Program-made: the position numbers and the translations under genes | Notes under the pieces: model-generated | Seen by the model: only the letters and a program-made list of their open reading frames with translations | Database searches by the model: none | What the model was told of the DNA's origin: nothing | Source: Candidatus Uhrbacteria bacterium | GTDB lineage: Bacteria; Patescibacteriota; Patescibacteriia; UBA9934; GWF2-40-263 | DNA length: 64,000 nt | Direction: 5' to 3' | Assembly: GCA_026395055.1 (NCBI GenBank) | Contig: JAPLZK010000003.1 | Span: 99,855 to 163,854 of the forward strand | In this document: positions 5,701 to 58,415 of the stretch, piece after piece | How the letters are laid out: each line of letters opens with the position of its first letter | Position numbering within the stretch: position 1 is the first letter of the stretch

Positions 5701-5749
5701 ACCAAACATCTGATTTGTTTTAAGTCATGTATTGTTTGGTTTTTGTTTT

Positions 5750-39867: not shown

Positions 39868-41397
39868 ATGAGTCGTTTGAGCAAATTGCTTGCGGATCTT
39901 GGCATGAACATTCCGATCGTTGATGAAACGACGGGTACGAGTTCGAATACGGGCACGGCGCTTGCCATGCCACAGAAGAACGCTGCCGCAAAGCGCGTCA
40001 TTGACGAAGGGGTCGACATGGCCTCAATAGTATACGCGGACCTCCCTCCGGAGGTGGCGCGTAGCCGCATGCGCGAACGTCTCGTCGAAGTCGGCGAAAT
40101 GGTGATCTTCCCAATCGACTTCACTGCGGGTGTTGTGGAGAAGGAAGATGGTAGCCCGGATCTGAAGATCTATGCCACCATGAACATTCCGGGCGTTGGG
40201 CACGTGGAAGTGCAGCCGCTCATCACGCTTGGCGTGAATTACATCGGTCAGACGAAGGAAGGCAAGTTCCGGACGTTGCAAACGTTCCAGTGCTTGGTCT
40301 TCCGGCCGAGGTTCGTGGATCCGAAGAAGCCGAAGGAAAATCCGTACAAGGCGTTTCCGATCAACTTCCTCAGTCCGAGTGTCCTCGACACCTGGAATTT
40401 CATTGCGACCCAGATGCCGAGCCTGAATTGGCCAACGATTGATCACATTCCGAATACTCTCCGCAAGGCGGGAACGCGGACGCTCACGTTTGCGCCACGG
40501 TGTCTGAAGACGTTGTCGTTCACGAATGACAAGCGTGTGAAGCGCAAGGGTCAGTGGGTGAATGAGCCTGTGACGGATTCGTTCCGGATCGTGGGTTACC
40601 TCTTTGGCCAGATGCTGAAGTTGCACGCGTTGTCGGATGAACCGGTCACTCCCGCGCTCGACGCAGATGGAAAGCAGCGTGAGAACAAGGAAGGCTATCA
40701 GCTGGTCGAGCTCGATCGGCGGGAATACGTCTGGAGCGTGAAGCTTGGCGAAGGTTCGCTCGAGTTGTCGCTCATTGATCTCGCGGAGAACTACAAGGGT
40801 GACGCGCGCGTTCCGATCGTGGAAGTGCGCAATGAAATGGATCCGTTCGCGGTCCTTGGCACGACGCCGCTCAAGATGGACATCAATACGGTTGGTGATC
40901 TCACGCGTGCGTGGGTCATGCGTGTGTACGATGAAACGAATCCGCTGTACGTGTATGCACGTGACGCGGGTCTCGTGAACATTCAGGACTCGCAGGAGAC
41001 CATGCGGCCGATCATCGAAGATCTCGGCCGTACGGCTGTGGAAAAGGGAATTGAGGATATGAAGGCGACCTACGCCGAAGTTACCTCGCGTCTCTCGACC
41101 GCATCGGACAAGCCGAGTATTGAGGAAGTGTTGAATGGGCGCCTGCTCAAGGCGATCCTGTTTCGCATGAACAAGGACGATGCTGCGGCTACGTGGATTG
41201 ATTCCAAGATCGAAGGCAGCTTTGATCCGAAGAGTCCGTTCCACATGGCAGTACGTCGGTACGTGATCGAGATGATCGCGACGAAAGCGAATTACAAGGA
41301 TCCGGAGCCGAAGAAGCCCGAAGCTCCGAAACCTCCTGTGGTCGAAGCGGCAGTTCTGCCTCCTACGACCGAGAACGCGGCGACTCCGCCTGCGTAA
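39868..41397 (+). CDS. large conserved hypothetical protein P1 (paralog of 41519..43300)
   Basis: 509 aa; shared blocks with P2 (QCLVF...KAFP, NPLY, QTM..I.EDL, FDPKSP); Pro-rich C-terminal tail; no enzymatic motif recognised. Confidence 0.55.
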   Translation: MSRLSKLLADLGMNIPIVDETTGTSSNTGTALAMPQKNAAAKRVIDEGVDMASIVYADLPPEVARSRMRERLVEVGEMVIFPIDFTAGVVEKEDGSPDLKIYATMNIPGVGHVEVQPLITLGVNYIGQTKEGKFRTLQTFQCLVFRPRFVDPKKPKENPYKAFPINFLSPSVLDTWNFIATQMPSLNWPTIDHIPNTLRKAGTRTLTFAPRCLKTLSFTNDKRVKRKGQWVNEPVTDSFRIVGYLFGQMLKLHALSDEPVTPALDADGKQRENKEGYQLVELDRREYVWSVKLGEGSLELSLIDLAENYKGDARVPIVEVRNEMDPFAVLGTTPLKMDINTVGDLTRAWVMRVYDETNPLYVYARDAGLVNIQDSQETMRPIIEDLGRTAVEKGIEDMKATYAEVTSRLSTASDKPSIEEVLNGRLLKAILFRMNKDDAAATWIDSKIEGSFDPKSPFHMAVRRYVIEMIATKANYKDPEPKKPEAPKPPVVEAAVLPPTTENAATPPA

Positions 41398-41518: not shown

Positions 41519-43300
41519 TTATTGTTTGTCTGTCCTGTATGCAACTTTGTATTCACCTCTATTCAGGATGGATCCGTGGTTCACACGCATGGGTGGGCCC
41601 GGATCATCCTCTCCTGCGGGTGGAATGACGCCATTCATTCCTGTCGGATCCCAAACGGTTGGATCAACGAATGGCAGTTCTTCATCGACGATGAGATCGA
41701 CGGTCGTCGCTTCTGCTTCGATGAACTCTTCGAGGTCATCGTCGCCCAAAATGATTTCTTCGTCGGCTGTATGCGGAACCGCTGTAGGTTTTGGCATTGG
41801 GACAAATGCATCGCTTGCGCGAAACGCCGGAGAACTTGATTCGCGATGACTCACGGGAAGTGAGGAGATCGGAATCTGTTTTGGAACGGGGGTGAGCTCT
41901 GGAATCAGGATGCTGACTTGAGAGATTTCTGGAATGGGTGGCGGTGTTACTCGTCCATACGAATTGATGAGCCATGAACGCAAGTGCATGAGCAGCGGAC
42001 TTTTTGGATCAAAGGGCATGTCGAGGACACGACTGATCCAAAGAGACGCAGCGTCTTCTGGTTGATTCATGCGCAGTGCGGCAACACGAATGTCTCTTCC
42101 GCCGAGCATGGCTTCTGCTGTTGGCTTATTTGGCGCAATCGTGAGCATGCGAATCATTTGAACAGAGGCTGCGGAGATTTGCAGTTTGATCTGTTTGATC
42201 GCGTCGAGCATCAGATCTTCAAGGATGGCATGCATGGTCTGCTGCGGATCACTCGGAAAGATCAGTTTCATTTCGATACCCGCAAGATACAACGGGTTTC
42301 GATGATCGAACGCTCGATTGAGATAGCCTCGCGCCGTTTGATCGATCGTTTTCCAATCAACCTTGAGCGGCGAGGTGTTGAGAACGGCGTATGGGTTGAT
42401 TGCGTCATGTACATCAAGAACGGCAAGACGCTGGTCTATTTTGACTTTGCCCTCTGGACCAAGCCAAAACACTTCAAGTGGACCTTCATTCAGTTTCACG
42501 CGGAAGATGTGTTTTGAAACGAATCGTTTTTCTCCATCCACGTCATCCGGTTCCGGAATTTGTGATTTGGAAGAGAGAAACAGCTTTTGTCCAAAGCGTG
42601 TTCCAATCAAGAGGCGTTTGCGAGATCCTCGTTCACGCTTGAACAATGGATCAAACGTTGGAATGAATTCAACAACGCGAACGCCGGGGCGCATCAAATT
42701 GTTGCGGATCACTTCAATGAGTGGCCAAAGCTCGTCTTTGTTTTTCGTAACGGCATTGCGACGTTTTGCAACGTCGTTCCAAACGTGAATTGTGCTTGGA
42801 TCCGCAAGTCCGAGCGGGAACGCTTTGAATGGCCCGGTCTTTGTGTTCGATTTGAAGACAAGACACTGGATGGAACCACCGCTTGTGTATTTCCCATTTT
42901 CGATCGCAATCAAATATTCGGGTCCGACATAGATGAGCGGAACGATTTCTTGTTCCGCGTCATAGCCGGGAAGGGTCGCTTTCGCGAATACGTGAACGTC
43001 CCCATTCGGTTGTTCACGACCTTCGAAGATGAGATTGGCAATATGTGCTCGACCATTCAATTCTCGCACAAGGCGTGCGCGCATGTCTGATCGTGCAGCT
43101 TCACGATTCGGATTTGGATCCACGAGTGCGGCGCGATTGATCGCGTCTGCGATCAATCGATTCGCTCCCGGAACACTGTCTGGGATCGCGGGAAGGTAAG
43201 CGCTTTTTCGGCCAGACAATTCTGGACTGATTTCCTGCACGTGCGGGATCGAAAGCCCGAGTTCGAGCAGGGTGACAGCGCTCAGCTGCGTCTCATCCAT
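41519..43300 (-). CDS. large conserved hypothetical protein P2 (paralog of P1) with long Pro/acidic C-terminal tail
   Basis: 593 aa; ~25% identity to P1 over ~450 aa; convergent orientation. Confidence 0.55.
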   Translation of the reverse strand: MDETQLSAVTLLELGLSIPHVQEISPELSGRKSAYLPAIPDSVPGANRLIADAINRAALVDPNPNREAARSDMRARLVRELNGRAHIANLIFEGREQPNGDVHVFAKATLPGYDAEQEIVPLIYVGPEYLIAIENGKYTSGGSIQCLVFKSNTKTGPFKAFPLGLADPSTIHVWNDVAKRRNAVTKNKDELWPLIEVIRNNLMRPGVRVVEFIPTFDPLFKRERGSRKRLLIGTRFGQKLFLSSKSQIPEPDDVDGEKRFVSKHIFRVKLNEGPLEVFWLGPEGKVKIDQRLAVLDVHDAINPYAVLNTSPLKVDWKTIDQTARGYLNRAFDHRNPLYLAGIEMKLIFPSDPQQTMHAILEDLMLDAIKQIKLQISAASVQMIRMLTIAPNKPTAEAMLGGRDIRVAALRMNQPEDAASLWISRVLDMPFDPKSPLLMHLRSWLINSYGRVTPPPIPEISQVSILIPELTPVPKQIPISSLPVSHRESSSPAFRASDAFVPMPKPTAVPHTADEEIILGDDDLEEFIEAEATTVDLIVDEELPFVDPTVWDPTGMNGVIPPAGEDDPGPPMRVNHGSILNRGEYKVAYRTDKQ

Positions 43301-43681: not shown

Positions 43682-44521
43682 ATGCAATTTTCCATTCCTC
43701 CTGCTGCCGCTGAAACAATTTTCCATCTCGGGGGGTTTTCTGTTACAAATACCATTATCAACAGCTGGATTGCTGTTGTTTTTTTTGTCATCATCGTCAT
43801 GTTGCTTAACCGCAAGCAAACACGTGTTCCAAAAGGATTGCGCAACATTGCAGAAGGGTTAGTTGAGTTCATGCTCGCAGAAATTCAAAAAGTTACAGGA
43901 GATGCAAAGCGCTCACGACAGTTTTTGCCGATCGTGGGAACAATCTTCTTGTTTATTTTATTTTCAAACTGGATCGGACTTTTCCCTGGAGTTGGTTCCA
44001 TCGGAGTGTGGGAAATAAAAGAGGGGACAAAGGAATTTATTCCCTTGTTACGTTCTGCCGCATCTGATTTGAACTTAACGCTCGCGATTGCCGCTTTTGC
44101 TGTTTTTACGTCGCACTTCATTGGTTTGCGGTCCGTTGGGCTTGTGAATCACTTCAGCAAATTCTTTAACATTCGTGGAATTTGGCGTTCGCTTAAGAAA
44201 GGACCGATCGCCATCATTGTTGCGGTGATTGAATTTGGTGTTGGACTCATTGAAATCGTAAGTGAGCTCGCAAAAGTTGTTTCACTTTCTCTTCGTTTAT
44301 TCGGAAATGTCTTTGCGGGAGAAGTGCTCATGACCGTGATGCTCGGATTGTTTTCCTATTTCCTTCCAATTCCATTCATCTTTCTTGAAATTCTTGTTGG
44401 TGTTGTTCAAGCAACCGTCTTTGCCATGCTTACGCTTGCGTATCTCACGGTTGCAACAACTTCGCATGAAGAGCATGAAGAAGAACATCATGAACCAGAT
44501 CACGTCCGTGCCCACGCATAG
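43682..44521 (+). CDS. atpB: F0F1 ATP synthase subunit a
   Basis: RLFGNVFAGE motif with conserved Arg, 5-6 TM. Confidence 0.9.
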   Translation: MQFSIPPAAAETIFHLGGFSVTNTIINSWIAVVFFVIIVMLLNRKQTRVPKGLRNIAEGLVEFMLAEIQKVTGDAKRSRQFLPIVGTIFLFILFSNWIGLFPGVGSIGVWEIKEGTKEFIPLLRSAASDLNLTLAIAAFAVFTSHFIGLRSVGLVNHFSKFFNIRGIWRSLKKGPIAIIVAVIEFGVGLIEIVSELAKVVSLSLRLFGNVFAGEVLMTVMLGLFSYFLPIPFIFLEILVGVVQATVFAMLTLAYLTVATTSHEEHEEEHHEPDHVRAHA

Positions 44522-44613
44522 GTTCGCGCAGGGCGTTGCTCCTCGAGATTCTCGACGATCAACGTTCATCGCGAAACGATGGAATCAATTTATTTATTCT
44601 TAAGGAAACTTTT

Positions 44614-44832
44614 ATGGACGCAGCAAGCATCATTGCCCTTGCAAAAGGACTTACGATTGCGATCGGCGGATTTGGTCCAGCGATCGGAATTGGTTTAATT
44701 GGATTTAAAGCGATGGAAGCGATTGGTCGCAATCCAGAAGCTGCAGGAAAATTGTTCGTGCCAATGCTTCTTGGAATGGCCTTCGCAGAAGCCGTTGCTA
44801 TTTACGCCCTCGTTGTTTCGTTTACCCTTTAA
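44614..44832 (+). CDS. atpE: F0F1 ATP synthase subunit c
   Basis: ORF 44536 trimmed to MDAAS; hairpin GRNPEA loop, carboxylate E in helix 2 (AEAVAIY); no Na+ Q/ES/T signature. Confidence 0.9.
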   Translation: MDAASIIALAKGLTIAIGGFGPAIGIGLIGFKAMEAIGRNPEAAGKLFVPMLLGMAFAEAVAIYALVVSFTL

Positions 44833-44889
44833 ACGACGCATCACGACAGGTTGTCGAGATTCGACGACCTTTGTGAGTTGTTGTTTCGT

Positions 44890-44986
44890 GAGGGGTAAGG
44901 GGCTAGAGGCAAGGGACTAGATTGAAATAATTTTCGTTCTTGTACCACCCTTTGTCTCGTCCCTCGCCCCTTGCCCCTAACCCCTT
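44890..44986. repeat. long imperfect G-rich/C-rich inverted repeat in atpE-atpF intergenic spacer
   Basis: left arm GAGGGGTAAGGGGCTAGAGGCAAGGGAC, right arm GTCCCTCGCCCCTTGCCCCTAACCCCTT (23/28 complementary), ~40-nt loop. Confidence 0.45.
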
Positions 44987-44992
44987 TTCTAT

Positions 44993-45499
44993 ATGTCAGA
45001 ACCTACAGGTGGCATCGCCACACTCGGAATCAATGTGAATATTTTTATCGCGCAGCTCGTCAACTTTCTTGTTGTCTTGCTTGTGCTTTGGAAATTTGCG
45101 TACAAGCCACTCGTCAAAATTTTGGATGATCGATCACAAAAAATTGAAGACAGCCTGAAGCAATCTGATGCGGTTGAGCTTCGTGTGAAACAACTTGAGG
45201 TTGAGCAAAAACAAATTATTGCAACGGCAAAAGGTGAAGCCATGCAAATTCTCGAAACAGCAAAAGCAGATGCAGATGTTCGTAAGCAAGAATTGCTTGC
45301 AGCGGCAAAGAAAGAGGTTGAGCGCGTCGTTGCTCAAGGCAAAGAACAACTTCAGGCAGAGAAAGCACAAATGCTTCATGAAGCAAAAGCAGAACTCGTG
45401 AATATGGCGGTTAGCGCTACAAAGAAAATTCTTGAATCAGAGGTTGATGAAAAAGCATCACATAAGATTGCGACAGACGTTATTCAAAAAATGTCCTAG
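44993..45499 (+). CDS. atpF: F0F1 ATP synthase subunit b
   Basis: N-terminal TM then long coiled-coil (KQLEVEQKQ...). Confidence 0.8.
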   Translation: MSEPTGGIATLGINVNIFIAQLVNFLVVLLVLWKFAYKPLVKILDDRSQKIEDSLKQSDAVELRVKQLEVEQKQIIATAKGEAMQILETAKADADVRKQELLAAAKKEVERVVAQGKEQLQAEKAQMLHEAKAELVNMAVSATKKILESEVDEKASHKIATDVIQKMS

Positions 45500-45503
45500 G
45501 CGT

Positions 45504-45887
45504 ATGAACGTTTCACCTAAACAATTAGCACGCCTGTTCGTTGAATCTGTCGAAGACGCTTCAGAGAAGCATCTCGAAGAAGCCGCGACAGAATTGATTA
45601 CGTGGCTTCACGCTCGTGGTGAGTTGAAGAAGCTGAAGGACGTCATTCGCTCCATTGATCAAATTTGGAAAGAAAAACATGGAATGGCAACGCTTACGAT
45701 TGAAACTGCGCATCCACTTACAAAAACAATGAAAGACGCACTCACGAGTCTTGCGGCTGGCGCAGAGGTTCGAGAGGTTGTTGATCCGACATTGATTGGT
45801 GGCGCAAGACTTCGCATCGACGAGCGCATTATTGACGGATCCTTGAAAGGCGCCCTTGAACAACTTACACAAAAACTTTCACGATAA
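45504..45887 (+). CDS. atpH: F0F1 ATP synthase subunit delta (short, 127 aa)
   Basis: ORF 45432 trimmed to MNVSPKQ; OSCP-like C-terminal GGARLRIDERIIDGSLKG. Confidence 0.65.
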   Translation: MNVSPKQLARLFVESVEDASEKHLEEAATELITWLHARGELKKLKDVIRSIDQIWKEKHGMATLTIETAHPLTKTMKDALTSLAAGAEVREVVDPTLIGGARLRIDERIIDGSLKGALEQLTQKLSR

Positions 45888-45896
45888 TTTTACAAC

Positions 45897-45940
45897 GCGA
45901 GAAAAGATTGCTTCGTCGATGACTCCTCGCAATGACAAAA
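45897..45940. repeat. intergenic repeat AAAGATTGCTTCGTCG..ACTCCTCGCAATGACAA before atpA
   Basis: near-identical copy before atpG (47497..47541). Confidence 0.4.
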
Positions 45941-45944
45941 CTTT

Positions 45945-47447
45945 ATGAATACTAAAACAGATATCGTCGACGCGCTTAAAAAGTCGCTCGAAACATTTCA
46001 AACAAGCACGTCTGAAGAACAAGTAGGAACTGTTCTCTCTGTTTCTGATGGAACCGCTCGCATGAGTGGACTTTCGAATGCAAAATCATCCGAGATGCTT
46101 GAATTTCCTGGCGGAGTCTTTGGCGTGGTGTTGAACCTCGAAGAAGATACGGTCGGAGCTGTTATTCTTGGAGACACAACAAAAATTAAAGAAGGGGACA
46201 CGGTTCGTGCCCTTGGACGTATTCTTTCTGTTCCTGTATCAGATGAGATTATTGGACGCGTCGTAGATCCACTTGGAAATCCCATTGATGGCAAAGGAGC
46301 ATTTCGTGCTTCTACATTTTTTCCGATTGAAAAAGTTGCTCCAGGTGTTATGACACGTAAATCCGTTGGAGTTCCACTTCAAACGGGAATTAAAGCGATT
46401 GATGCCCTTATTCCAATCGGTCGTGGTCAGCGTGAGCTCATCATCGGAGATCGCCAAGTGGGAAAGACGGCAATTGCCATCGACACAATCATCAACCAAA
46501 AAGGACAGGGGGTGAAATGTATTTATGTTGCGATTGGTCAAAAGGAATCTAAGATCGCAAAGATTGTTGCAAAGCTCGAAGAAGCAGGTGCTATGGAATA
46601 CACAACCGTTGTTGTGGCTGGTGCATCTGATCCAGCAGCGCTTTCTTACATCGCTCCGTACACTGGTTGTACGATTGGAGAATACTTCATGGCAAAGGGC
46701 GAAGATGCGCTCGTTGTGTATGACGATTTGTCGAAACACGCTTGGGCTTATCGTGAAATTTCTCTTCTTCTTCGCCGCCCACCAGGACGTGAAGCGTATC
46801 CAGGAGATGTTTTTTATCTTCACTCTCGTTTGCTTGAACGCGCAGCGCGTTTGAATGAAGAGAATGGTGGAGGATCACTTACAGCTTTGCCGATCATCGA
46901 AACACAAGCGGGTGATGTGTCTGCTTACATTCCAACAAACGTTATTTCTATTACAGACGGACAGATTTATCTTGAAAGCGATTTATTCTATCGTGGAATT
47001 CGCCCAGCGCTCAACGTTGGTCTCTCTGTTTCTCGTGTGGGATCCGCTGCGCAAACAAAGGCTATGAAAAAAGTGGCGGGAAAGTTGCGTCTCGACCTTG
47101 CGCAATTCCGTGAGCTCGAAGCGTTCGCACAATTTGCGACGGACCTCGATGCAGGAACGCGTGCACAAATTGAACTTGGACGCCGCACAACAGAATTGCT
47201 CAAGCAATTGCAGTACCAACCACTTCCATTCGAGGAACAAGTTGCGGTGATCTTTTCGGTAACAAACGGGTTCTTGAATGCGGTCGCCATCGAAAAAGTT
47301 GTGCAATGGGAAACAGATTTTCGTTCCTATATGAACTCGGTCGGCGCAGATGTTTTGAAGTCATTGCGTGACGAGAAAGCCCTTACAGATGAAATTGTTG
47401 TATCGCTTAAAGAAGCCATTACAGGATTTAATGAACAGTGGAAATAA
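45945..47447 (+). CDS. atpA: F0F1 ATP synthase subunit alpha
   Basis: GDRQVGKT Walker A, full-length alpha. Confidence 0.95.
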
Positions 47448-47452
47448 GTTTT

Positions 47453-47541
47453 GTGTCATTGCGAGCGAAGCGCGGCAATCTTTCTAGGGAGTTTATCTCA
47501 AGGAAAAAGATTGCTTCGTCGTCGAACTCCTCGTAATGACA
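47453..47541. repeat. intergenic hairpin/repeat before atpG (TTGTCATTGCGAG...GCAATCTTT // AAAGATTGCTTCGTCGTCGAACTCCTCGTAATGACAA)
   Basis: outer and inner inverted arms; right half repeats the element before atpA. Confidence 0.4.
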
Positions 47542-47551
47542 ATAAAAATAT

Positions 47552-49856
<2,305 letters not shown>

Positions 49857-49945
49857 ATAATAAATCCGAATATCGAATAACGAAATTCGAAAACAGAGTA
49901 AGGTTTTCGACATTCGGATTTTGTCTTCATTTCGAATTTTATCTT
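49857..49945. repeat. 7-bp periodic CGAAnnn repeat element between atpD and atpC
   Basis: TCCGAAT ATCGAAT AACGAAA TTCGAAA ... TTTTCGACATTCGGATTT ... ATTTCGAATTTTAT; homologous copy at 62144..62234. Confidence 0.45.
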
Positions 49946-50371
49946 ATGTATTTGAATTTAAAGATCGTCACCCCAGAACGCATTGTCTATGAAGACGATG
50001 TTGATTCTGTTTCTCTCATGACAGAAATGGGTGAAGTCACGATTTTGCCAAATCACGTTCCCTTGGTATCAAATCTTCGCGCGGGTGAAGTTCGATTGAA
50101 AAAGAATGGGGAAGAGTCACATCTTGTTGCGTCAACTGGATTTCTCGAGGTGCGTCCCGGAAATCAGGTCGTGATCCTCGCAGACACAGCAGAACGTTCA
50201 GAAGAACTTGAACTCGAGAAGATTGAGGAAGCAAAGGAACGTGCTCGTAAATTCCTTACGGAAACCAAGCATAAAGACGACGTGGCGTTTGCGGATGCGG
50301 CAGTTCACCTAGAAAGAGAGCTCGCCCGATATCACGTTGCGCTTAAACGAAAGAAATCACATAAAAACTAG
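49946..50371 (+). CDS. atpC: F0F1 ATP synthase subunit epsilon
   Basis: N-terminal beta-sandwich pattern LKIVTPERIVYEDDV, C-terminal helices. Confidence 0.85.
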   Translation: MYLNLKIVTPERIVYEDDVDSVSLMTEMGEVTILPNHVPLVSNLRAGEVRLKKNGEESHLVASTGFLEVRPGNQVVILADTAERSEELELEKIEEAKERARKFLTETKHKDDVAFADAAVHLERELARYHVALKRKKSHKN

Positions 50372-50501
50372 AAAAAGATATCCACCGCTGAACGCGGTGG
50401 ATTTTTATTTAGCCTTGACGGAAAGGATGACTGGAGGTATCATCGTGTTCTCCAAGTGAGTATTTGGAGACGTTCTTTGATCGTAAACCCTTACAAGGAG
50501 T

Positions 50502-51175: not shown

Positions 51176-51316
51176 TTTTGCTTCACAGCAAAATAACCAC
51201 CCATAGCTCGCACCGAGCAACGGATGGTCCATCTTGTGAACGCATGTATCTGTGCAAAAAGAACCTTGACGCTCTTTCATGCCAGGAGTAAATTATCCGA
51301 GATCAATTAATATCAT

Positions 51317-51856
51317 ATGAGCTTTCCAAAATTACTGAAGCGACTTTTTCTTGGACCACGTGTTACTGAAAAACAGGAATCTTTTTTAAAAACAGATAAA
51401 GAATTTGAAGCTGTCGGCGCGGAATTAAAATCCATCGTGCAATCTTTATATGGAGGACGATCCCTTCGTATTCGTGCGGTTGATGGAGGTTCAACAAATG
51501 CAGAAGAGAACGAGCTCACCGCTCTTAGCAATGCCTACTACGATATTGATCGTTTTGGGTTGAGTTTCGTTGCGTCTCCACGTCATGCAGACATGGTTTG
51601 GGTAACAGGTTGTGTGACGCGCAACCTTGAGCGTGCGGTGAAAACAACCTATGAAGCCGCACCAGAGCCATGCATTGTTGTCGCCATTGGTGACGGAGCT
51701 TGCACGGGAGGAATCTGGAAAGATTCTTATGCGGTAGTTGGAGCTCTTGAAAATGTTATTCCGGTTCACATCAAGATTCCTGGAGATCCGCCAACGCCAA
51801 CGCAAATCTTGCGTGGAGTTTTAAACGCGCTCAAACAATCATCCTCAAAATCTTAA
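51317..51856 (+). CDS. NuoB/HycG-like small subunit lacking three of four N2 cluster cysteines
   Basis: aligns to NuoB SPRxAD...GxCAxxGG...PGCPP but CCxxE -> GGSTNAEE and PGCPP -> PGDPP; only GDGACTGG Cys retained. Confidence 0.75.
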   Translation: MSFPKLLKRLFLGPRVTEKQESFLKTDKEFEAVGAELKSIVQSLYGGRSLRIRAVDGGSTNAEENELTALSNAYYDIDRFGLSFVASPRHADMVWVTGCVTRNLERAVKTTYEAAPEPCIVVAIGDGACTGGIWKDSYAVVGALENVIPVHIKIPGDPPTPTQILRGVLNALKQSSSKS

Positions 51857-51857
51857 T

Positions 51858-53840
51858 ATGAATCTTTCGTTTTTTGTTGTGCTGTCTTTGTCTGGAGTAT
51901 TCCTTTCTGCACTTATTTCATTTATCAGCGCAAAAGGGCAGGGGCACCGCGCAGTCGTGACGCTCCTCGCGTTGTCTACGGGACTTGGAGCCTTTTCAAG
52001 TGCGGCTTTTTTGTTGAGTGGTCAATCTCAACTCACAATCACTCAATCTGCGTGGCTTTTTGGAACACCATTCGTTTTATCTGTTCTCTCAGCACTATTC
52101 TTTTTTCTTTTAAACACAGTCGCTTGTCTCGCATCTGTTTACGCCATGAAGTATGTGGAACAGTATACGGAAGTCTATAACGTTCGCGTTCTCGATGGTC
52201 TCATGGCTATTTTCGTGCTCGGCATGCAAGGCGTCCTTCTTGCGGGCACACCGTTTGGATTTCTTGTGTTCTGGGAAATCATGTCGCTGTCATCCTTCTT
52301 TCTTGTCATGGCAGACAAAGAAGCGGCATCCGTTCGCGCAGCGCTCTTTTATCTCATCATGACACATCTTGGGGCAGGAGCGATCCTTGCTGGATTTATG
52401 ATCCTCTCGAACGGATCATTACTTGAATCATTCACGCGCCTCGCCATTCTCGCGCAACATCTTCCACCTTCAACACTGTTTGGTGTATTTCTTTTATTTC
52501 TCTTTGGCTTTGGCTCAAAGGCGGGACTTGTTCCGTTTCATGTCTGGCTTCCAGAAGCTCACCCACAAGCTCCATCGCACATTTCCGCACTCATGTCTGG
52601 AGTGATGTTAAAAATGGCGCTTTACGGTTTTTTGGTAATGACCTTCACTGTCCTTCCAATCGGAAGCTCGACCGCAGCCCTTATTGTGATTGCGCTTGGA
52701 CTTCTCTCGGCTGTTTACGGAGTGATTTACGCCGTGATTGAACGTGATGTGAAGCGTGTCCTTGCGTTTAGTAGTATTGAAAACATGGGAATTATTTTCA
52801 CCATGCTTGGTGTTGCCATGCTCACACAATCACAAGGAATGTCTGCATTCTCACACGTTGCCCTCGGCGCAGCGTTGTTGTTTGCCATTGCACACGCCTT
52901 TTTTAAGTCCGGATTGTTTATGGGGGCTGGAGTCATGGTTCATGCCGCACATTCGAGATCGCTCGAAGTGATGGGGGGATTATCAAAGCGTATGCCAGCA
53001 TTTTCTGGCGCAATGCTCATCCTTGCGCTTGCAGCCGCAGCACTTCCTCCATTCTCCGCATTTATGGCGGAATGGACGTTTGTGCAAAATCTCGTTGCAA
53101 ATTTGTCGACCATGTCGCCATTTATTCAGGGTGTTCTTGTCTTGGTTCTTGTGACCATGGCACTTGTTGGGGGTCTCGCGTTATTCGCCATGATCAAGTT
53201 GTTCGGGATCGGATTCCTTGCTGAGCCTCGTTCAGAACATGTTGCACACGCTAAAGCTCCTGGAAAACTCATCGCAATTCCAATTTATCTTCTTGCAGCC
53301 TGTTCCGTTCTGGTCGGACTTCTTGCACCAGCGATTTTAAGAACGATCGGATACGGGGATCTCACGGTTAATTACGACTTGCACACAAACATAGTTCTTG
53401 GAGGAGGATCCATGAATCCAGGTAAACTCCTCGCGCTTCTTGTCGCAACGTTCTTCCTCGTTCTTCTTTTACGTCGTGTGCTCTCGAACGTTAAGCACGA
53501 ACGTGAATATCACACGTGGGACTGCGGACAGCCAATCACTCCAGGAATGGAATTCACCGCAACAGCTTTCTCCGCATCGATTCGATTCTTCTTCCGTGTG
53601 ATTACACGCACAAAAAAGAATGTGATTACAACTCCGATCATTGCAAGTAATCCATGGATTGCAAGCCGAACATTCTCTCTCGAGCTTCGACAAATTTGGT
53701 ACGACGATCTTTACGTGCCAATCCAAAACGCGTGTCTCTGGACGTCTACCCAAGTTCGTAAACTCCAAAACGGTGTCATTCAATTCTATATCGCCCTTAT
53801 CTTCATTGCCCTCGTAGTAACGCTCGCGATCGCCCTATGA
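51858..53840 (+). CDS. NuoL/MrpA/HyfB-like antiporter-type membrane subunit
   Basis: 660 aa, ~16 TM, conserved proton-pumping-subunit core. Confidence 0.75.
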   Translation: MNLSFFVVLSLSGVFLSALISFISAKGQGHRAVVTLLALSTGLGAFSSAAFLLSGQSQLTITQSAWLFGTPFVLSVLSALFFFLLNTVACLASVYAMKYVEQYTEVYNVRVLDGLMAIFVLGMQGVLLAGTPFGFLVFWEIMSLSSFFLVMADKEAASVRAALFYLIMTHLGAGAILAGFMILSNGSLLESFTRLAILAQHLPPSTLFGVFLLFLFGFGSKAGLVPFHVWLPEAHPQAPSHISALMSGVMLKMALYGFLVMTFTVLPIGSSTAALIVIALGLLSAVYGVIYAVIERDVKRVLAFSSIENMGIIFTMLGVAMLTQSQGMSAFSHVALGAALLFAIAHAFFKSGLFMGAGVMVHAAHSRSLEVMGGLSKRMPAFSGAMLILALAAAALPPFSAFMAEWTFVQNLVANLSTMSPFIQGVLVLVLVTMALVGGLALFAMIKLFGIGFLAEPRSEHVAHAKAPGKLIAIPIYLLAACSVLVGLLAPAILRTIGYGDLTVNYDLHTNIVLGGGSMNPGKLLALLVATFFLVLLLRRVLSNVKHEREYHTWDCGQPITPGMEFTATAFSASIRFFFRVITRTKKNVITTPIIASNPWIASRTFSLELRQIWYDDLYVPIQNACLWTSTQVRKLQNGVIQFYIALIFIALVVTLAIAL

Positions 53841-54772
53841 ATTCCTTTCTCCTAACTCTCGTCCAATTCATCGCTGTCATTCTCGTCGCACCATTCGTGA
53901 CGGGGCTGGTTCGCATGTGCAAGGCGCGATTCCAAGGCCGACACGGTGCTTCACCATTTTTGCCGTACATCACGTATGCAACACTTCTCAAGAAACAAAT
54001 GGTTATTTCGAAAAGCACCTCTTGGGTTTTTCGTTTGGTTCCATTTGTTGTTCTTGCGACGACGTTGTTTCTTGTTTGCGTTTTACCACTTCTTGTTTTC
54101 GGCGGAGCCTTTGTATCACTCGGTCACTTCATGATTGTTGCCGGTGTTCTCGCACTCGGTGCGGCATTTCTTGTTATGGGTGGACTTGAAAGTGCAAGTG
54201 CATTCGGAGGAATGGGCGCATCTCGTGAAATGACGTTAGCGTCCCTCGTCGAGCCAGCCATGATCGCAACATTCGCAACATTTTCCATCGTCACCGGCGC
54301 ATTCACCGTCGACGCGATGTTTGCAAACGCGCATATTCTCACTTCACCCGCATTGATTCCAGCAATCGCTGCGCTTATCATGGTCGCGCTTGCGGAGAAT
54401 GCGCGTTATCCGGTCGACAACCCAGCAACACACCTTGAACTTACAATGGTTCACGAGGCGATGGTTCTTGAATACTCTGGACCTTATCTTGCGATGCTTG
54501 AATACGCATCCGCAGTGAAACTCACCATTTTTTCTTTGCTTGTTGCAAACATCTTGTTTCCCATGACTCTTGCGGTTGATGCAACTCTTGTTGCGATCTT
54601 GATTACGATTGCGTACATGATCGTGAAAGTCATCGTTGTTTCATTCTTGCTCGCGCTGCTTGAATCATTGATTGCCAAAATGCGTTTTTATAGAATGCAA
54701 GAATACATGACCATTGCGTTCTTCTTTGCGCTTGCTGGCCTTGTCTTTGCTCTCATCCACATCACCCTATGA
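53837..54772 (+). CDS. NuoH/HycD/HyfC-like membrane subunit
   Basis: GLVRMCKARFQGRHGASPFLPY and AENARYPVDNPATHLELTMVHEA correspond to NuoH conserved loops. Confidence 0.65.
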   Translation: MNSFLLTLVQFIAVILVAPFVTGLVRMCKARFQGRHGASPFLPYITYATLLKKQMVISKSTSWVFRLVPFVVLATTLFLVCVLPLLVFGGAFVSLGHFMIVAGVLALGAAFLVMGGLESASAFGGMGASREMTLASLVEPAMIATFATFSIVTGAFTVDAMFANAHILTSPALIPAIAALIMVALAENARYPVDNPATHLELTMVHEAMVLEYSGPYLAMLEYASAVKLTIFSLLVANILFPMTLAVDATLVAILITIAYMIVKVIVVSFLLALLESLIAKMRFYRMQEYMTIAFFFALAGLVFALIHITL

Positions 54773-55398
54773 TCTCACTTTCTCTTTGGAATAATATCTT
54801 CATGGGCGGAACGCTTTTGTTTGCGATCGTCATGATGGGAATGCCACGGCTCCCAGCGATGCTTCGCTTCTTCGCGTTGTCCTCACTTTGTCTCGCGGGA
54901 CTCATTGTCACGTCATCTCTCATGAAAGGGGATGAACAGCCGTACGCAATCGCGATCATCAATATTGTGTTCAAGGTAATCCTTGCTCCAAGCATTTTGT
55001 TTTTTGCTGCACGCAAGGTTCGCGCATCCATGGCGCTCAAGTTTTATTTGCGTCCAACCGCAACCTACTTCGCTGCGCTCCTCGTGTTGCTCATCTCTGT
55101 ATTCGTTTCGTTGCGCATGCCGGGCGTTCCATATCTTTCGATCGCCCTTGTTCTTCTTGGGCTCGTATTCATGATGGTTCGAAAAGATTTGTACTCACAA
55201 ATCATTGGATTCATGACCATGGAAAATGGAATTGCCGCTTACGGTGTACTCATGATTGGCGGTTTTCCCTTCATGATTGAAACAGGAATCTTGTTCGTTG
55301 TGATCACCGGAGCAATCTTGATGGCAATCTTAAGTCGTCATGTGCAAGAGCTCTACGCAACGGGCGACACGGAATCCTTAACCGAGCTCACCGAATAA
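54769..55398 (+). CDS. HyfE/NuoK-like small membrane subunit
   Basis: 209 aa, 6 TM, C-terminal MENGIAAYG...ETGI NuoK-like segment. Confidence 0.5.
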   Translation: MISLSLWNNIFMGGTLLFAIVMMGMPRLPAMLRFFALSSLCLAGLIVTSSLMKGDEQPYAIAIINIVFKVILAPSILFFAARKVRASMALKFYLRPTATYFAALLVLLISVFVSLRMPGVPYLSIALVLLGLVFMMVRKDLYSQIIGFMTMENGIAAYGVLMIGGFPFMIETGILFVVITGAILMAILSRHVQELYATGDTESLTELTE

Positions 55399-55399
55399 T

Positions 55400-56857
55400 A
55401 TGCCAACTATTTTCATCCTATTTCTTTTTGCAGCCGCAAGCGCATACATTGCTCGAACGGAAAAACAGATTCGTGTAAGCGCACTCGTGTTTGCGATTCT
55501 TGGTGGTGGTTCAAGTCTTTACCTCGCAGTCATGAGACTTCTTGTAAGTCCATACACACCCGTCTCAGGTTGGTTTCGTGCGGACATGTACACCTGGTTC
55601 ATGATTGCGCTTGTTTCATTTGTGTATATCACTGCAACGATTGCGAGCGTTCGCTATACAGGCGAGGAATCTCGCGAAGGATTGCTTACGATCGAGAAAC
55701 TCCGTGTCTACTTTTTCTCCATTCCACTCTTTATCCTTGCCATGCTTGTTTCTGTTCTCGCAAACCACCTTGGTTTGCTTTGGATTGGACTTGAAGGCAC
55801 AACTCTTACGACAACCTTGCTCGTTGCGCTGTATCGTAAGGATGCATCCATTGAGGCGGCTTGGAAGTTCATCATGCTCTGCTCCATTGGTATCGGACTT
55901 GGAATGATTGGAATGCTCATGTTTGTGCACGCCGGAGTTGTCGCTGGACTCAACGTGTTTGATGCGTTCTCATACTCAACGCTTCGAACGAGTGCACATC
56001 TTCTTGACCCAGCATCGATGAAGCTCGCTTTCGTCTTTCTTCTCGTTGGAATTGGAACCAAAGTTGGTTTTGTCCCAATGCACACATGGCTTCCGGATGC
56101 TCACAGTAAAACTCCCTCGCCAATTAGCGCACTTCTTTCAGGGGTACTCTTGAACGTTGCGTTCTTTGTCTTGCTACGTTGCAAAGTTCTCACCGATCTT
56201 TCGATCGGAAGTTCTGCATGGTCTGATCACCTTATGATCGGCTTTGGCGTGCTCTCCGTTGTTGTTGCCGCATTTTTCTTACTCCAACAACGCAACTACA
56301 AGCGCATGCTTGCGTATTCGAGTGTTGAACACATGGGACTCATGGGCTTTGCGTCTGGACTCGGTCCTGTTGGAATGCTGGCACTTACGATCCATGCTGT
56401 CTTTCACACCCTTACAAAATCCGCATTGTTCTTCACATCGGGTGAAATTTTGCTTTCTCAAAAAACAACAAAGATTGCCGGAATCAAAAATTTGATGAAG
56501 AAAACTCCGATCACGGCAACGTTGTTCCTCCTCGGCATTCTTGCGATCATCGCCGTCCCACCATCCGGACTCTTTACGAGTGAGTTCATGATTGTCGGTG
56601 CTGGACTCCAATCCGCTCGCGGGCTCACACTCGTCCTGCTTCTCGCTCTCACCATGATTGCGTTTAGTATGTTGAAGAGTACGACGTCCATGCTTTACAC
56701 AGCAGATGATGGAGTCGTCGAACATACACATAAAGAAAAATGGACGCTCACACACGCGGTCGTCATCGTTCAGTTGATTCTGATCGTTGTGCTCGGACTT
56801 TTCATCACCACCGCGCCAGTCCTCGACTTTTTCAAGTCAATTTCACAATCGATCTAA
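55400..56857 (+). CDS. NuoN/NuoM/HyfF-like antiporter-type membrane subunit
   Basis: 485 aa, ~14 TM, conserved core of complex I antiporter subunits. Confidence 0.7.
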   Translation: MPTIFILFLFAAASAYIARTEKQIRVSALVFAILGGGSSLYLAVMRLLVSPYTPVSGWFRADMYTWFMIALVSFVYITATIASVRYTGEESREGLLTIEKLRVYFFSIPLFILAMLVSVLANHLGLLWIGLEGTTLTTTLLVALYRKDASIEAAWKFIMLCSIGIGLGMIGMLMFVHAGVVAGLNVFDAFSYSTLRTSAHLLDPASMKLAFVFLLVGIGTKVGFVPMHTWLPDAHSKTPSPISALLSGVLLNVAFFVLLRCKVLTDLSIGSSAWSDHLMIGFGVLSVVVAAFFLLQQRNYKRMLAYSSVEHMGLMGFASGLGPVGMLALTIHAVFHTLTKSALFFTSGEILLSQKTTKIAGIKNLMKKTPITATLFLLGILAIIAVPPSGLFTSEFMIVGAGLQSARGLTLVLLLALTMIAFSMLKSTTSMLYTADDGVVEHTHKEKWTLTHAVVIVQLILIVVLGLFITTAPVLDFFKSISQSI

Positions 56858-56858
56858 T

Positions 56859-58415
56859 ATGAACGCACAAGAAATTCTTCACACTATCAAATTGTCCGGC
56901 CACACCCATGGCTCTCTTGTGACGCTTGAGTCTGTTTCACCGGAATGGTTCACCCCGTTGTGCAATCGATTGTCCGCTGAGTTCAAACTTCCGCTTTCTT
57001 TGTTGTATGCAACAGATGATCGCAAAGAGGGAAAGGGGTTCGGTATTCATGTGTTGTTTGCGCTTGATGCGTCACACGAGTGGCTGCTTGTTGAGACAAC
57101 ATTGTCCGAAGAGAACCCAAGTTATGAATCTCTGACAAAAACAATCATGGAAGCGCATTGGTATGAGCGTTATGCCATGGATATGTTTGGCATTAAGGCA
57201 GAAGGTCATCCAGATCCACGTCGTTTGGTTCATCATGAGAACGTTCCGGCAAACACACATCCACTTCGTAAAGATTTTGCGTGGAATACAAAGATGGAGC
57301 ATGCAAATGAACCTTATCCAATGCATCACATTGAAGGCGAAGGAATCTTTGAGATTCCGGTCGGTCCAATTCACGCAGGTGTGATTGAGCCCGGACATTT
57401 TCGCTTTAACGTTGCGGGTGAACGTATTATTACCCTCGAAGGAAAGTTGTTCTTCACACACAAGGGTGTTGAGAAACTCCTTGAAGGAAAGACAGTTGCA
57501 CAAGCACTTCCATTCATTGAACGTATCTCAGGCGACATGTCTGCGTCACACACACTTGCATTTGCTCAAGCGATCGAGCAGATCTCAAGCGTGACGGTTC
57601 CAAAGCGTGCGCAAGAACTGCGTGTACTGATTACAGAACTTGAACGCATTACAATGCATACATTCGACATTGGAAACATGGCGGGAAACGGAACCGGATT
57701 TACGGTTGAAGCAGCTCATGGATTCCGTGTGAAAGAAAAAATCATGCGATTGTCTGAACGTGTGTTCGGAAATCGTTTTTGGCGCGGATTCGTTGTGCCG
57801 GGCGGAGTCTCGAAGACGTTGTCACAAGAAGAACTTCTCGATATTGTAAAAACAACAAAGGAAGTTGTTCAAGAGATGGAAGATCTCTTTCAGCTTGGTC
57901 GACACTCAGATGGACTTCGCGAGCGTCTCGAGACAACAGGTGTCCTCGCAAAAGAAGTCGCCGTAGCATTTGGTGCGCTTGGACTTCCAGCTCGTGGATC
58001 TGGAGTGGATCGTGACGTTCGTCGTGATCATCCTTATGCAGCGTATGCCGAGATGCAACCGGAAGTATTCACCTTTGAGAAAGGCGATGTCTATGCACGT
58101 TGGAAACTGCGCGCACTTGAGATGGTCGAATCAATGAAGCTCATCGAAAAGATTTGTGCCTCAAAGAACGACGGCTCTGTGCGTGTCGACGTACACGTAA
58201 AAGACGGCATGGCGATCGGTGCGGTCGAATCATGGCGTGGTGAGCTATTGAACGTGGTCTACGTCAGGAATGGTGTGATTGCACGCTGCGTTCCACGTGA
58301 TCCATCCTTCTGCAACTGGGCGCTCTTTGGAGCGATTGGCCCTGGAAACATCATTCCGGACTTTCCCTTGTGTAACAAATCATTGAACTTAAGTTATTCC
58401 GGAACCGATTTGTAA
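56859..58415 (+). CDS. fused NuoC-NuoD / HycE-like large subunit lacking NiFe-ligand cysteines
   Basis: ORF 56787 trimmed to MNAQEIL; NuoC-like WYERYAMDMFGI..GHPD; GPIHAGVIEPGHFRF; L1 motif RxCGxCxxxH replaced by RISGDMSASH; C-terminal DPCxxC replaced by DPSFCN. Confidence 0.8.
   Translation: MNAQEILHTIKLSGHTHGSLVTLESVSPEWFTPLCNRLSAEFKLPLSLLYATDDRKEGKGFGIHVLFALDASHEWLLVETTLSEENPSYESLTKTIMEAHWYERYAMDMFGIKAEGHPDPRRLVHHENVPANTHPLRKDFAWNTKMEHANEPYPMHHIEGEGIFEIPVGPIHAGVIEPGHFRFNVAGERIITLEGKLFFTHKGVEKLLEGKTVAQALPFIERISGDMSASHTLAFAQAIEQISSVTVPKRAQELRVLITELERITMHTFDIGNMAGNGTGFTVEAAHGFRVKEKIMRLSERVFGNRFWRGFVVPGGVSKTLSQEELLDIVKTTKEVVQEMEDLFQLGRHSDGLRERLETTGVLAKEVAVAFGALGLPARGSGVDRDVRRDHPYAAYAEMQPEVFTFEKGDVYARWKLRALEMVESMKLIEKICASKNDGSVRVDVHVKDGMAIGAVESWRGELLNVVYVRNGVIARCVPRDPSFCNWALFGAIGPGNIIPDFPLCNKSLNLSYSGTDL

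Follow-up and report, generated by a model that had tools for sequence, protein, structure and literature searches.

The window analyzed here, a stretch of 64,000 nucleotides from a Candidatus Uhrbacteria bacterium of the candidate phyla radiation (CPR) (assembly GCA_026395055.1, contig JAPLZK010000003.1, positions 99,855 to 163,854), carries a six-gene module that resembles complex I and the group 4 hydrogenases in its subunits and lacks the metal ligands of both. Positions are counted from the first letter of the window. The genes, designated S, B, H, E, F, and CD, are all on the forward strand (+), and successive stop and start codons overlap or are 1 to 2 nucleotides apart, a spacing that denotes translational coupling. 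S (51317 to 51856) encodes a NuoB/HycG/MbhJ-like small subunit without ligands for cluster N2 (Pfam Oxidored_q6, 4e-22). It is followed by B (51858 to 53840), a HyfB/NuoL-like antiporter-type subunit of 660 amino acids (hydrogenase-4 subunit B model NF005086, 7e-150; PF00361); H (53837 to 54772), which is NuoH/HycD-like (NADHdh, PF00146, 4e-28); E (54769 to 55398), which is HyfE-like with a NuoK-like C-terminal half (NF008556, 1e-17; PF00420); F (55400 to 56857), a HyfF/NuoN-like antiporter-type subunit (NF005045, 4e-115); and CD (56859 to 58415), a fusion of NuoC-like and NuoD/HycE-like sequences (Complex1_30kDa and Complex1_49kDa) without NiFe ligands. The ATG at 56859 as the start of CD agrees with database protein P0001 (518 amino acids, 100%), which comes from a metagenome-assembled Candidatus Uhrbacteria genome. 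These Pfam and NCBIfam matches bear out the gene order and subunit assignments of the original prediction, which had been made from the sequence alone without database searches. The best scores of the membrane subunits were to the HyfB, HyfE, and HyfF models, S scored under every NCBIfam NuoB cutoff, and the NCBIfam NuoD models were likewise below cutoff.

For comparison, 80 related loci were collected, with flanks of at most 10 kb per side; 68 of them are from outside the Acidobacteriota. Residue conservation was assessed in 70 small subunits (S) and 120 large subunits (CD). The order S-B-H-E-F-CD was the same in 80 of 80 loci, and the family comprises 7094 proteins at an E value of ≤1e-3. 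Two Falkowbacteria-type loci that were fetched by a separate route have the NuoH-like and HyfE-like proteins fused into one of 526 to 530 amino acids (L093, 6938 to 8530; L094, 6961 to 8541), which leaves a five-gene module.

The module belongs with the complexes termed Ehr (energy-converting hydrogenase related), because it combines group-4-like large and small subunits with NuoH-like, NuoL/M/N-like, and HyfE-like membrane subunits and because its large subunit is without both CxxC NiFe motifs (RISGDMSASH, SLNLSYSGTD). Ehr complexes have been catalogued since 2005. They were first noted in Geobacter, form six-gene clusters elsewhere, and have no assigned function (PMC3569383; PMC7894505; PMC6349859). 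The six-gene cluster and the NiFe-Cys-less large subunit are shared with EhrA-D, L, and S of Geobacter sulfurreducens (GSU0739-45) and with Desru_3260-3265 of Desulfotomaculum ruminis. Unlike Ehr as published, the module begins with its small subunit, which is without the four N2 ligands and has conserved Thr, Glu, Gly, and Asp in their place, and it is syntenic with an ATP synthase operon and with carbonic anhydrases (CAs), an association not reported for Ehr.

Ligand positions and electron input

The ligand columns of S were read from ungapped phmmer alignments to MbhJ (6cfw_J) and HycG (7z0s_G). None of the four N2 ligand positions is Cys (0/4), and the ligand set for the proximal [4Fe-4S] cluster of a group 4 hydrogenase is missing: Cys1 corresponds to T60, Cys2 to E63, Cys3 to G127, and Cys4, the Cys of PGCPP, to D157. 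Residues 1 to 98 include no Cys at all. One N2 Cys of the four had been thought to remain. However, the residue in question, C129 (GDGAC), is off-register, two residues past the Cys3 column, and is not conserved, with Ile, Val, or Ala at this position in 14 of 70 relatives (Ile in 12/70). The positions that surround or replace the ligands are conserved, with E63, E64, E66, D126, and G127 invariant (70/70) and D157 present in 63 of 70, and S is the most conserved subunit (56 to 94% identity across loci). A replacement Fe-S site formed from other cysteines of S was considered and is unlikely, because C129 is off-register and variable and C119 is about 8 residues away, farther up a beta strand.

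The lack of N2 ligands in a small subunit is no oddity of the window. Among the 150 nearest 50%-identity clusters of S, 94 have all four Cys and about 25 are without N2 ligands, including Acidobacteriota and Chloroflexota proteins from modules of the same layout. About 10 of the 150 carry the x-E-G-D pattern of the window, and about 12 carry a second Cys-less pattern, D-x-[A/D/E]-[D/S], which includes Chloroflexota proteins.

The NiFe site of the large subunit is also gone. The L1 motif of HycE, RVCGICGFAH, aligns with RISGDMSASH of CD, which substantiates the earlier reading of this motif as Cys-less. The earlier L2 assignment, DPSFCN, was wrong, since this segment aligns with AATYAN of HycE, about 25 residues upstream of L2. 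The true counterpart of the HycE L2 motif SLDPCYSCTD is SLNLSYSGTD at the extreme C terminus, also without Cys. The four NiFe ligand positions are thus S224, M227, S512, and G515. S224, D226, S512, and G515 are found in 120 of 120 sequences, and position 227 is Met or Ala. With S and CD taken together, none of the eight canonical ligand positions is Cys, so the possibility that the N2 and NiFe cysteines are present but shifted, which was checked by alignment, did not materialize. CD retains the hydrogenase second-sphere motifs GPIHAG.IEPGHFRF, E.WRGE, and RDPSFCNW, and C477, C485, and C505 are conserved. CD terminates one residue past SLNLSYSGTD and so offers a maturation protease no extension to remove. 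The column of the quinone-binding Tyr of NuoD (RLDY) is G225, so that the Tyr of complex I is missing along with its N2 ligands.

No partner for electron input was found. Neither NuoI, NuoA, NuoJ, nor an electron-input module was detected in the operon or in the scanned open reading frames (ORFs) of the window, and the approximately 38 window ORFs scanned included no Fe-S, hyp, or NuoEFG gene. The predicted absence of a NuoI/HycF/HyfH-type subunit, HyfA, and NuoEFG is thereby confirmed for the module and the scanned window ORFs. The CxxCxxCxxxCP ferredoxin motif was absent from all stop-to-stop ORFs of at least 50 amino acids in the 80 loci, so a search of related genomes' loci for a ferredoxin-type redox partner, which could have overturned the original prediction, returned none. 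Within the window, the motif scan gave a single loose match (6136 to 6486), out of frame with a real gene. Because the NiFe site, the quinone Tyr, the N2 cluster, and the ferredoxin subunit have all been lost, the module is predicted to be unable to run on electron transfer.

The membrane arm and ancestry of the module

The canonical proton-pathway residues that were checked are, as judged by alignment, retained. In B, residues E140, K221, K252, H346, K350, and E405 show conservation of 95% or more across sequences, and in F, E132 of transmembrane helix (TM) 5, K221 of TM7, H332/H336/K340, and E395 of TM12 are conserved. In both antiporter-like subunits the TM5 Glu, TM7 Lys, TM8 His/Lys, and TM12 Glu are near-invariant. 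The two NuoK-type Glu residues of E, E152 and E171, are conserved, and the NuoH-type loop of H, ENARYPVDNPATHLELTMVHEAM.L.YSG (187 to 215), is near-invariant. The C-terminal extension of B (residues ~549 to 600) has a near-invariant R549, W-D-C-G (554 to 557), R576, and K587, and this patch may serve for docking.

All six ORFs remain intact and coupled, both in the window and in every examined locus in which the module lies fully inside a contig. The ratio of nonsynonymous to synonymous substitution rates (dN/dS) against two relatives was 0.03 for S and 0.07 to 0.11 for the other five genes (0.024 for atpD), ratios that are approximate since dS was 1 to 1.8, close to saturation. Pseudogenization, which had been named as a way in which the original prediction could fail, was checked and is ruled out by the intact ORFs and the purifying selection. 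The module is predicted to be a working, cofactor-free member of the Ehr family rather than a relic, because its replacement residues are conserved, dN/dS is 0.03 to 0.11, and the proton-pathway residues are near-invariant; selection appears to preserve the proton-translocating machinery.

The module is predicted to descend from a Hyf/Hyc-type group 4 hydrogenase, because its closest solved relatives are HycE (7z0s_E, 3e-59) and Pyrococcus MbhL (5e-45) for CD, and MbhJ (1e-25) and HycG (2e-24) for S. It shares second-sphere motifs with these enzymes (E. coli Hyc/Hyf, PDB 7Z0S; Pyrococcus MBH, 6CFW). However, it is without their NiFe site, proximal cluster, HycF/HyfH/HyfA ferredoxin subunit, HyfD, C-terminal processing extension, and formate dehydrogenase partner. 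The same six-gene order is found in Acidobacteriota, with 58% CD identity, and in Chloroflexota (L081), where the small-subunit pattern is DAAD. The ISGD...SYSG signature of the large subunit is common to the module and to L084, which has a Geobacter-like gene order and a small-subunit pattern of DADN and which served as a stand-in for Geobacter EhrL and EhrS. A sister form in two loci (L082, 7356 to 14666; L083, 6883 to 14193) has the same order and an ISGD/SYSG large subunit and keeps the four N2 Cys (SCNGCELE, GDCA, PGCPP). Because the N2 Cys are kept there with an already Cys-less large subunit, the sister form is an apparent intermediate, and the loss of the NiFe site apparently preceded that of N2, which may have happened more than once.

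In the literature searched, no description was found of small subunits without N2 ligands, of CPR Ehr complexes, or of a link between CAs and Ehr, although the search was incomplete and a prior description is possible. Relative to that literature, the cofactor-free peripheral arm with acidic replacements, the recruitment of four CA families, and the ATP-synthase neighborhood in CPR are new.

Carbonic anhydrases and ATP synthase beside the module

The gene directly upstream of the module, P56 (50502 to 51143, +), encodes a divergent beta-carbonic-anhydrase-like protein in which Zn is proposed to be bound by C41, H116, and C119, close to D43 and D45. The database version starts at M3. P56 had no Pfam or NCBIfam match. 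Its AlphaFold2 model (predicted local distance difference test [pLDDT], 82; predicted template modeling score [pTM], 0.81) gave 47 beta-CAs among the top 50 Foldseek matches, all of them weak (best E value, 1.5e-3). C41-x-D43-x-D45-Q and H116-x-P-C119-G are invariant in the P56 family, and in the model each metal motif sits after a beta strand and before a helix. This placement matches the zinc site of beta-CAs, CxDxR...HxxCG.

Downstream of the module, P58 (58555 to 59151, +) is a degenerate paralog of P56 in which H-x-P-C-G is replaced by AAAPS, so that the metal-binding His and Cys are gone. Its dN/dS of 0.19 to 0.30 indicates faster evolution than that of the module, with which it is possibly co-transcribed. 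The claim that the module is flanked by paralogs holds only at the level of profiles: BLASTP found no similarity between P56 and P58 (E = 15), whereas profile-profile comparison with hhalign identified them as distant paralogs (probability, 90%; E value, 1.5e-6). P58 was found only in the window and in two other loci (L001 and L045), so the P56-module-P58 arrangement is not a conserved one.

Clustering of the genes directly flanking the module across the 80 loci revealed three more CA families beside the P56 type, which accounts for 12 of the flanking genes. A CsoSCA-like family of ~340 amino acids, with Pfam CsoSCA_cat above threshold and conserved CxDxR...H...C, occurs in 18 loci; a Pro_CA_2 family with CxDxR...HxDCG in 5; and a gamma-class CA, with best matches to the CcmM and Cam models (1e-36 to 2e-49), in 6. 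The four families were treated as distinct because hhalign comparisons were not significant (probability, ≤6%), although the ligand motifs line up. No homology of the CA partners to DabA (PF10070) or CupA/ChpX was found, the non-P56 partners matching the CsoSCA_cat, Pro_CA_2, and gamma-CA models, and no obvious hydrophobic N terminus was seen in the partner sequences that were inspected. The suggestion that the flanking genes may take part in the function of the module proved productive for P56 and its counterparts, as four CA families flank modules, but not for P58, which is degenerate and limited to three loci. A 336-amino-acid ORF in L035 (3384 to 4391), ending 14 bp before S, has a strict beta-CA signature (CSDGR ... 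HDECG) and no Pfam or NCBIfam match and may represent a fifth CA-like family; L035 also carries a gamma-CA downstream of CD.

The CA-like genes, 41 in 40 of the 68 non-Acidobacteriota loci, are concentrated at the edges of the module. For all 41, the distance to the start of S or to the end of CD is at most 900 bp, and the remaining 460 kb of flanking sequence contains none (P about 2e-19). On the module's strand are 38 of the 41. An adjoining CA is present in 34 of the 45 CPR loci for which both flanks were available. CA types are interleaved among close relatives on a tree of CD, a pattern that points to repeated CA replacement. The two loci fetched by a separate route have the same kind of layout, atpC-(11 bp)-module-CsoSCA_cat in L093 and a module followed by a P56-family gene in L094. 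Homologs of the CsoSCA-like family also adjoin clusters of DabA and four antiporter-like genes in Nitrosomonas and Thiobacillus, and the family thus has a record of accompanying complex-I-type inorganic-carbon pumps. In these clusters (L088, 520 to 11053, GCA_900110385.1; L089, 10001 to 21059, GCA_040080645.1, respectively) a Proton_antipo_M gene is followed by DabA of ~1080 amino acids and a further three genes of the Proton_antipo_M type. Having a second CA as well as four antiporter-like subunits, these clusters look larger than the two-gene DAB of the published description, and the Thiobacillus cluster is beside the RuBisCO genes cbbL-cbbS-cbbQ-cbbO. In seven Acidobacteriota loci without an adjoining CA, the module is followed on its own strand, 0 to ~5 kb downstream, by a CbiM + PDGLE gene (Co/Ni ECF transporter substrate component) (L077, 11550 to 12800; L046, L034, L049, L051, L052, and L059), a neighborhood that may hint at a metal requirement.

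An F1Fo ATP synthase operon (43682 to 50371, +; Pfam ATP-synt_A and ATP-synt_DE_N, with the remainder identified as ORFs) is directly upstream of P56 and the module. It encodes subunits a (43682 to 44521), c (about 44614 to 44832), b (44993 to 45499), delta (to 45887), alpha (45945 to 47447), gamma (47552 to 48466), beta (to 49856), and epsilon (atpC, 49946 to 50371), all on the + strand. The c subunit reads AFAEAVAIY in helix 2 and GIGLIG in helix 1. Because neither helix contains the Na+ motif, Q...E-S/T, the enzyme is probably H+ coupled. Upstream of the module and on the same strand, atpC is present in 37 of 48 non-Acidobacteriota loci, at no more than 300 bp in 18 and at 11 bp in L093. 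Eleven loci have no upstream atpC, and in 7 of these a CA nonetheless adjoins the module, which indicates that the link of the CA is with the module.

This part of the window probably has three transcription units, given terminator-like hairpins after atpC, P56, and P58 and promoter-like sites before P56 and S. The hairpin after atpC (50380 to 50402, +) resembles a strong intrinsic terminator, with a 9-bp stem, 6 G-C pairs, and a T-run. The hairpins after P56 (51151 to 51170, +) and P58 (59157 to 59174, +) are weaker, and these two, the promoter-like site before S (51266 to 51294, +), and the one before P56 come from consensus scans. Thus, the predicted association of the module with the F1Fo operon is upheld as a conserved adjacency, but in the window a strong terminator separates the two.

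The remaining window genes among the ORFs scanned are housekeeping genes, and Rfam and tRNA scans of the whole window found no RNA gene. Just upstream of the atp operon, two convergent paralogs (39868 to 41397, +; 41519 to 43300, -) with 31% identity over 472 amino acids (E value, 8e-65) and no Pfam match occupy the sole GC-rich stretch of the window (54% versus ~45%). A gene for a DsbD-like membrane protein, to which a cupredoxin-like domain is fused (5732 to 6808), directly precedes one for a heavy-metal P-type ATPase that carries an HMA domain (6810 to 9116), a gene pair that is probably for copper handling.

Proposed function and rival explanations

With the redox ligands and electron input absent and purifying selection strong, the best reading is the one originally proposed, an ion-translocating scaffold reused for non-redox coupling. 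As to what is coupled, we consider the chances about even that the module is a proton-gradient-coupled vectorial CA like DAB or NDH-1MS, built on an Ehr scaffold. The antiporter-like subunits with an intact proton pathway and the adjoining CA-like gene with metal ligands are the features expected of a vectorial CA. The complex would have the shape of complex I, with a membrane arm of HyfB-, HyfF-, HyfE-, and NuoH-like subunits and a cytoplasmic arm of NuoB-like and NuoC-NuoD-like proteins. A cytoplasmic CA would dock on this complex, P56 here and a CsoSCA-like, Pro_CA_2, or gamma-class enzyme in relatives. Proton flow through the antiporter-like subunits would gate or pull CO2 + H2O -> HCO3- + H+ and so make hydration directional, the CA either handing the hydration proton to the proton pathway of the complex or being gated by it, a mechanism that has been put forward for DAB2 and, in a redox-driven form, for NDH-1MS/CupA. 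Since the organism lacks a respiratory chain, the gradient would come from hydrolysis of fermentative ATP by the neighboring, probably H+-coupled F1Fo ATPase. The conserved atp-CA-module neighborhood would be explained if the ATPase supplied the gradient. Gradient-consuming hydration is the preferred direction, yet it is the least secure step of the proposal.

Two known systems offer precedents. In DAB2 (DabA/DabB) and MpsAB, as in the proposed complex, a beta-CA-like protein is combined with one or more complex-I-type antiporter-like subunits, independently of redox chemistry. In contrast to them, the module has no DabA (PF10070) homolog and has six scaffold subunits, including a NuoB/NuoCD/NuoH remnant of the Q module, rather than one membrane subunit, and its putative CA partners are small, apparently soluble proteins drawn interchangeably from four families. 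Cyanobacterial NDH-1MS (NDH-1_3/4, CupA/CupB) is closer in architecture, as an L-shaped, complex-I-like scaffold that carries a CO2-hydrating protein and makes hydration directional by proton removal. However, NDH-1MS is driven by electron flow from ferredoxin to plastoquinone and keeps N2 and NdhI, whereas the module is without redox cofactors, and CupA is unrelated to the CAs found here. In the published comparison with NDH-1MS, DAB2 is described as a redox-independent CA on a NuoL-like subunit and proposed to be driven by the proton gradient (PMC13144422).

Several observations weigh against a vectorial CA. The proposed coupling rests on synteny and homology. The assignment of P56 to the beta-CA fold is a weak, model-based one, given the best Foldseek E value of 1.5e-3. 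In the window, terminators set apart the atp operon, P56, and the module. The association of module and CA is only partial: no CA adjoins the module in 11 of the 45 fully flanked CPR loci, in the basal clade, in 10 Acidobacteriota loci, in Chloroflexota L081, in L082/L083, or in L084, and stand-alone CAs exist (P0309, L090, and L092). In the CPR locus L091 (2922 to 11095), only 23 bp separate a complete atp operon from the CsoSCA-like CA gene behind it, and there is no module, so that all three pairwise associations among atp, CA, and module exist. Because of L091 and the stand-alone CAs, the CA may be tied to the ATP synthase or to acid-base balance in general. An obligate CA-module partnership was dropped, since the reverse association is partial. 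In DAB and NDH-1MS the CA is attached to an antiporter-like subunit, and a NuoB/NuoD arm is not required. The CA model does not explain why the cofactor-free arm is so strongly conserved (E63, D157, S224, D226), and the benefit of energized bicarbonate trapping to a nonautotrophic CPR cell is hard to see.

A rival reading is that the module is a Mrp-like secondary cation/proton antiporter or pH-homeostasis device, with the peripheral arm as a structural or regulatory cap and the CA and atp genes as neighbors only through a shared island for acid-base balance and membrane energization, without direct coupling of CA and module, a possibility that we regard as unlikely but credible. Like the Mrp Na+/H+ antiporter, the module has two MrpA/D-type PF00361 subunits, here with intact Lys/Glu pathways, a NuoK/MrpC-like element (weak Oxidored_q2 match), and no redox input. 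Modules in Acidobacteriota, Chloroflexota, and the basal clade stand alone without a CA, a CA follows the atp operon without a module in L091, and the new acidic residues E63 and D157 could form a cation site. However, no family match to MrpE, MrpF, or MrpG and no MrpB homolog was found among the six proteins, which include NuoH-like, NuoB-like, and NuoCD-like subunits foreign to Mrp. A Mrp-like device also leaves unaccounted for the recruitment of four CA families next to the module, the presence of relatives of the same CA family beside DAB-type pumps, and the strong conservation of the former hydrogenase pocket. That pocket is the centerpiece of a further, improbable explanation, in which the direction is reversed: HCO3- + H+ -> CO2 at or near the former NiFe/quinone site would mimic the proton consumption of hydrogenases and complex I and drive outward proton pumping, and the ATP synthase would make ATP. 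The retained second-sphere residues (IEPGH, WRGE), the polar and acidic residues newly present where the metals were bound, and the apparent single atp-module-CA operon of some genomes (with the 11-bp gap in L093) fit this direction, as does the lack of any known proton-gradient generator in CPR bacteria. Yet the thermodynamics would be weak without a sustained CO2/HCO3- disequilibrium and a bicarbonate importer, and no importer was seen in the loci, and the CA is a separate protein, outside the pocket. Moreover, known vectorial CAs hydrate and consume energy (PMC13144422).

A cryptic redox enzyme, in which an unlinked partner such as formate dehydrogenase or ferredoxin and non-Cys or novel cofactors pass electrons through S and CD to power ion pumping, is the classical view of Ehr complexes but also seems to us a slim prospect. 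Oxidoreductase partners have been proposed for Ehr (PMC6349859), and Geobacter Ehr subunits rise with formate (PMC7894505). The sister form L082 keeps four N2 Cys in the same six genes, C477, C485, and C505 are conserved in CD, and CbiM-type Co/Ni uptake genes lie downstream in the seven Acidobacteriota loci. On the other hand, Cys is missing from all eight canonical ligand positions, and Thr/Glu/Gly/Asp at the N2 columns matches no Fe-S ligation pattern known to us. No Fe-S protein was found within 10 kb in the 80 loci, hyp or maturation genes were not found among the window ORFs scanned, CD is without a C-terminal extension, and CPR genomes are thought to lack electron-transport chains. The loss of all catalytic metal ligands and of Hyf subunits A, D, and H would also be expected if the module were a Hyf-type hydrogenase operon in decay that no longer has a function. 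That explanation is effectively refuted by six intact, coupled ORFs, dN/dS values of 0.03 to 0.11, invariant replacement residues, and a family of thousands of members (7094).

A related proposal is that the ATP synthase, the CA, and the module form a CO2/bicarbonate chemiosmotic circuit in which inorganic-carbon acid-base chemistry at the old hydrogenase/quinone pocket would generate a proton gradient and ATP without respiration. We give this circuit only a small chance of being correct. If it were, the circuit would be a third way to drive a complex-I-type machine and the first function for an Ehr family that has been an orphan for 20 years.

The vectorial CA proposal provides a testable hypothesis for two questions, the function of Ehr and the way in which CPR/Patescibacteria, which have no respiratory chain, energize their membranes. 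Targets for mutagenesis are the conserved Glu and Asp where N2 was bound and the conserved Ser and Asp of the former NiFe site. If the hypothesis is true, vectorial CAs, exemplified by NDH-1MS and DAB/MpsAB, would gain a third architecture, and electron transfer would prove dispensable for the NuoB/NuoD/NuoH coupling module, a point of relevance to the debated coupling mechanism of complex I. It would also mean that very abundant groundwater bacteria have an unrecognized system for handling inorganic carbon or pH.

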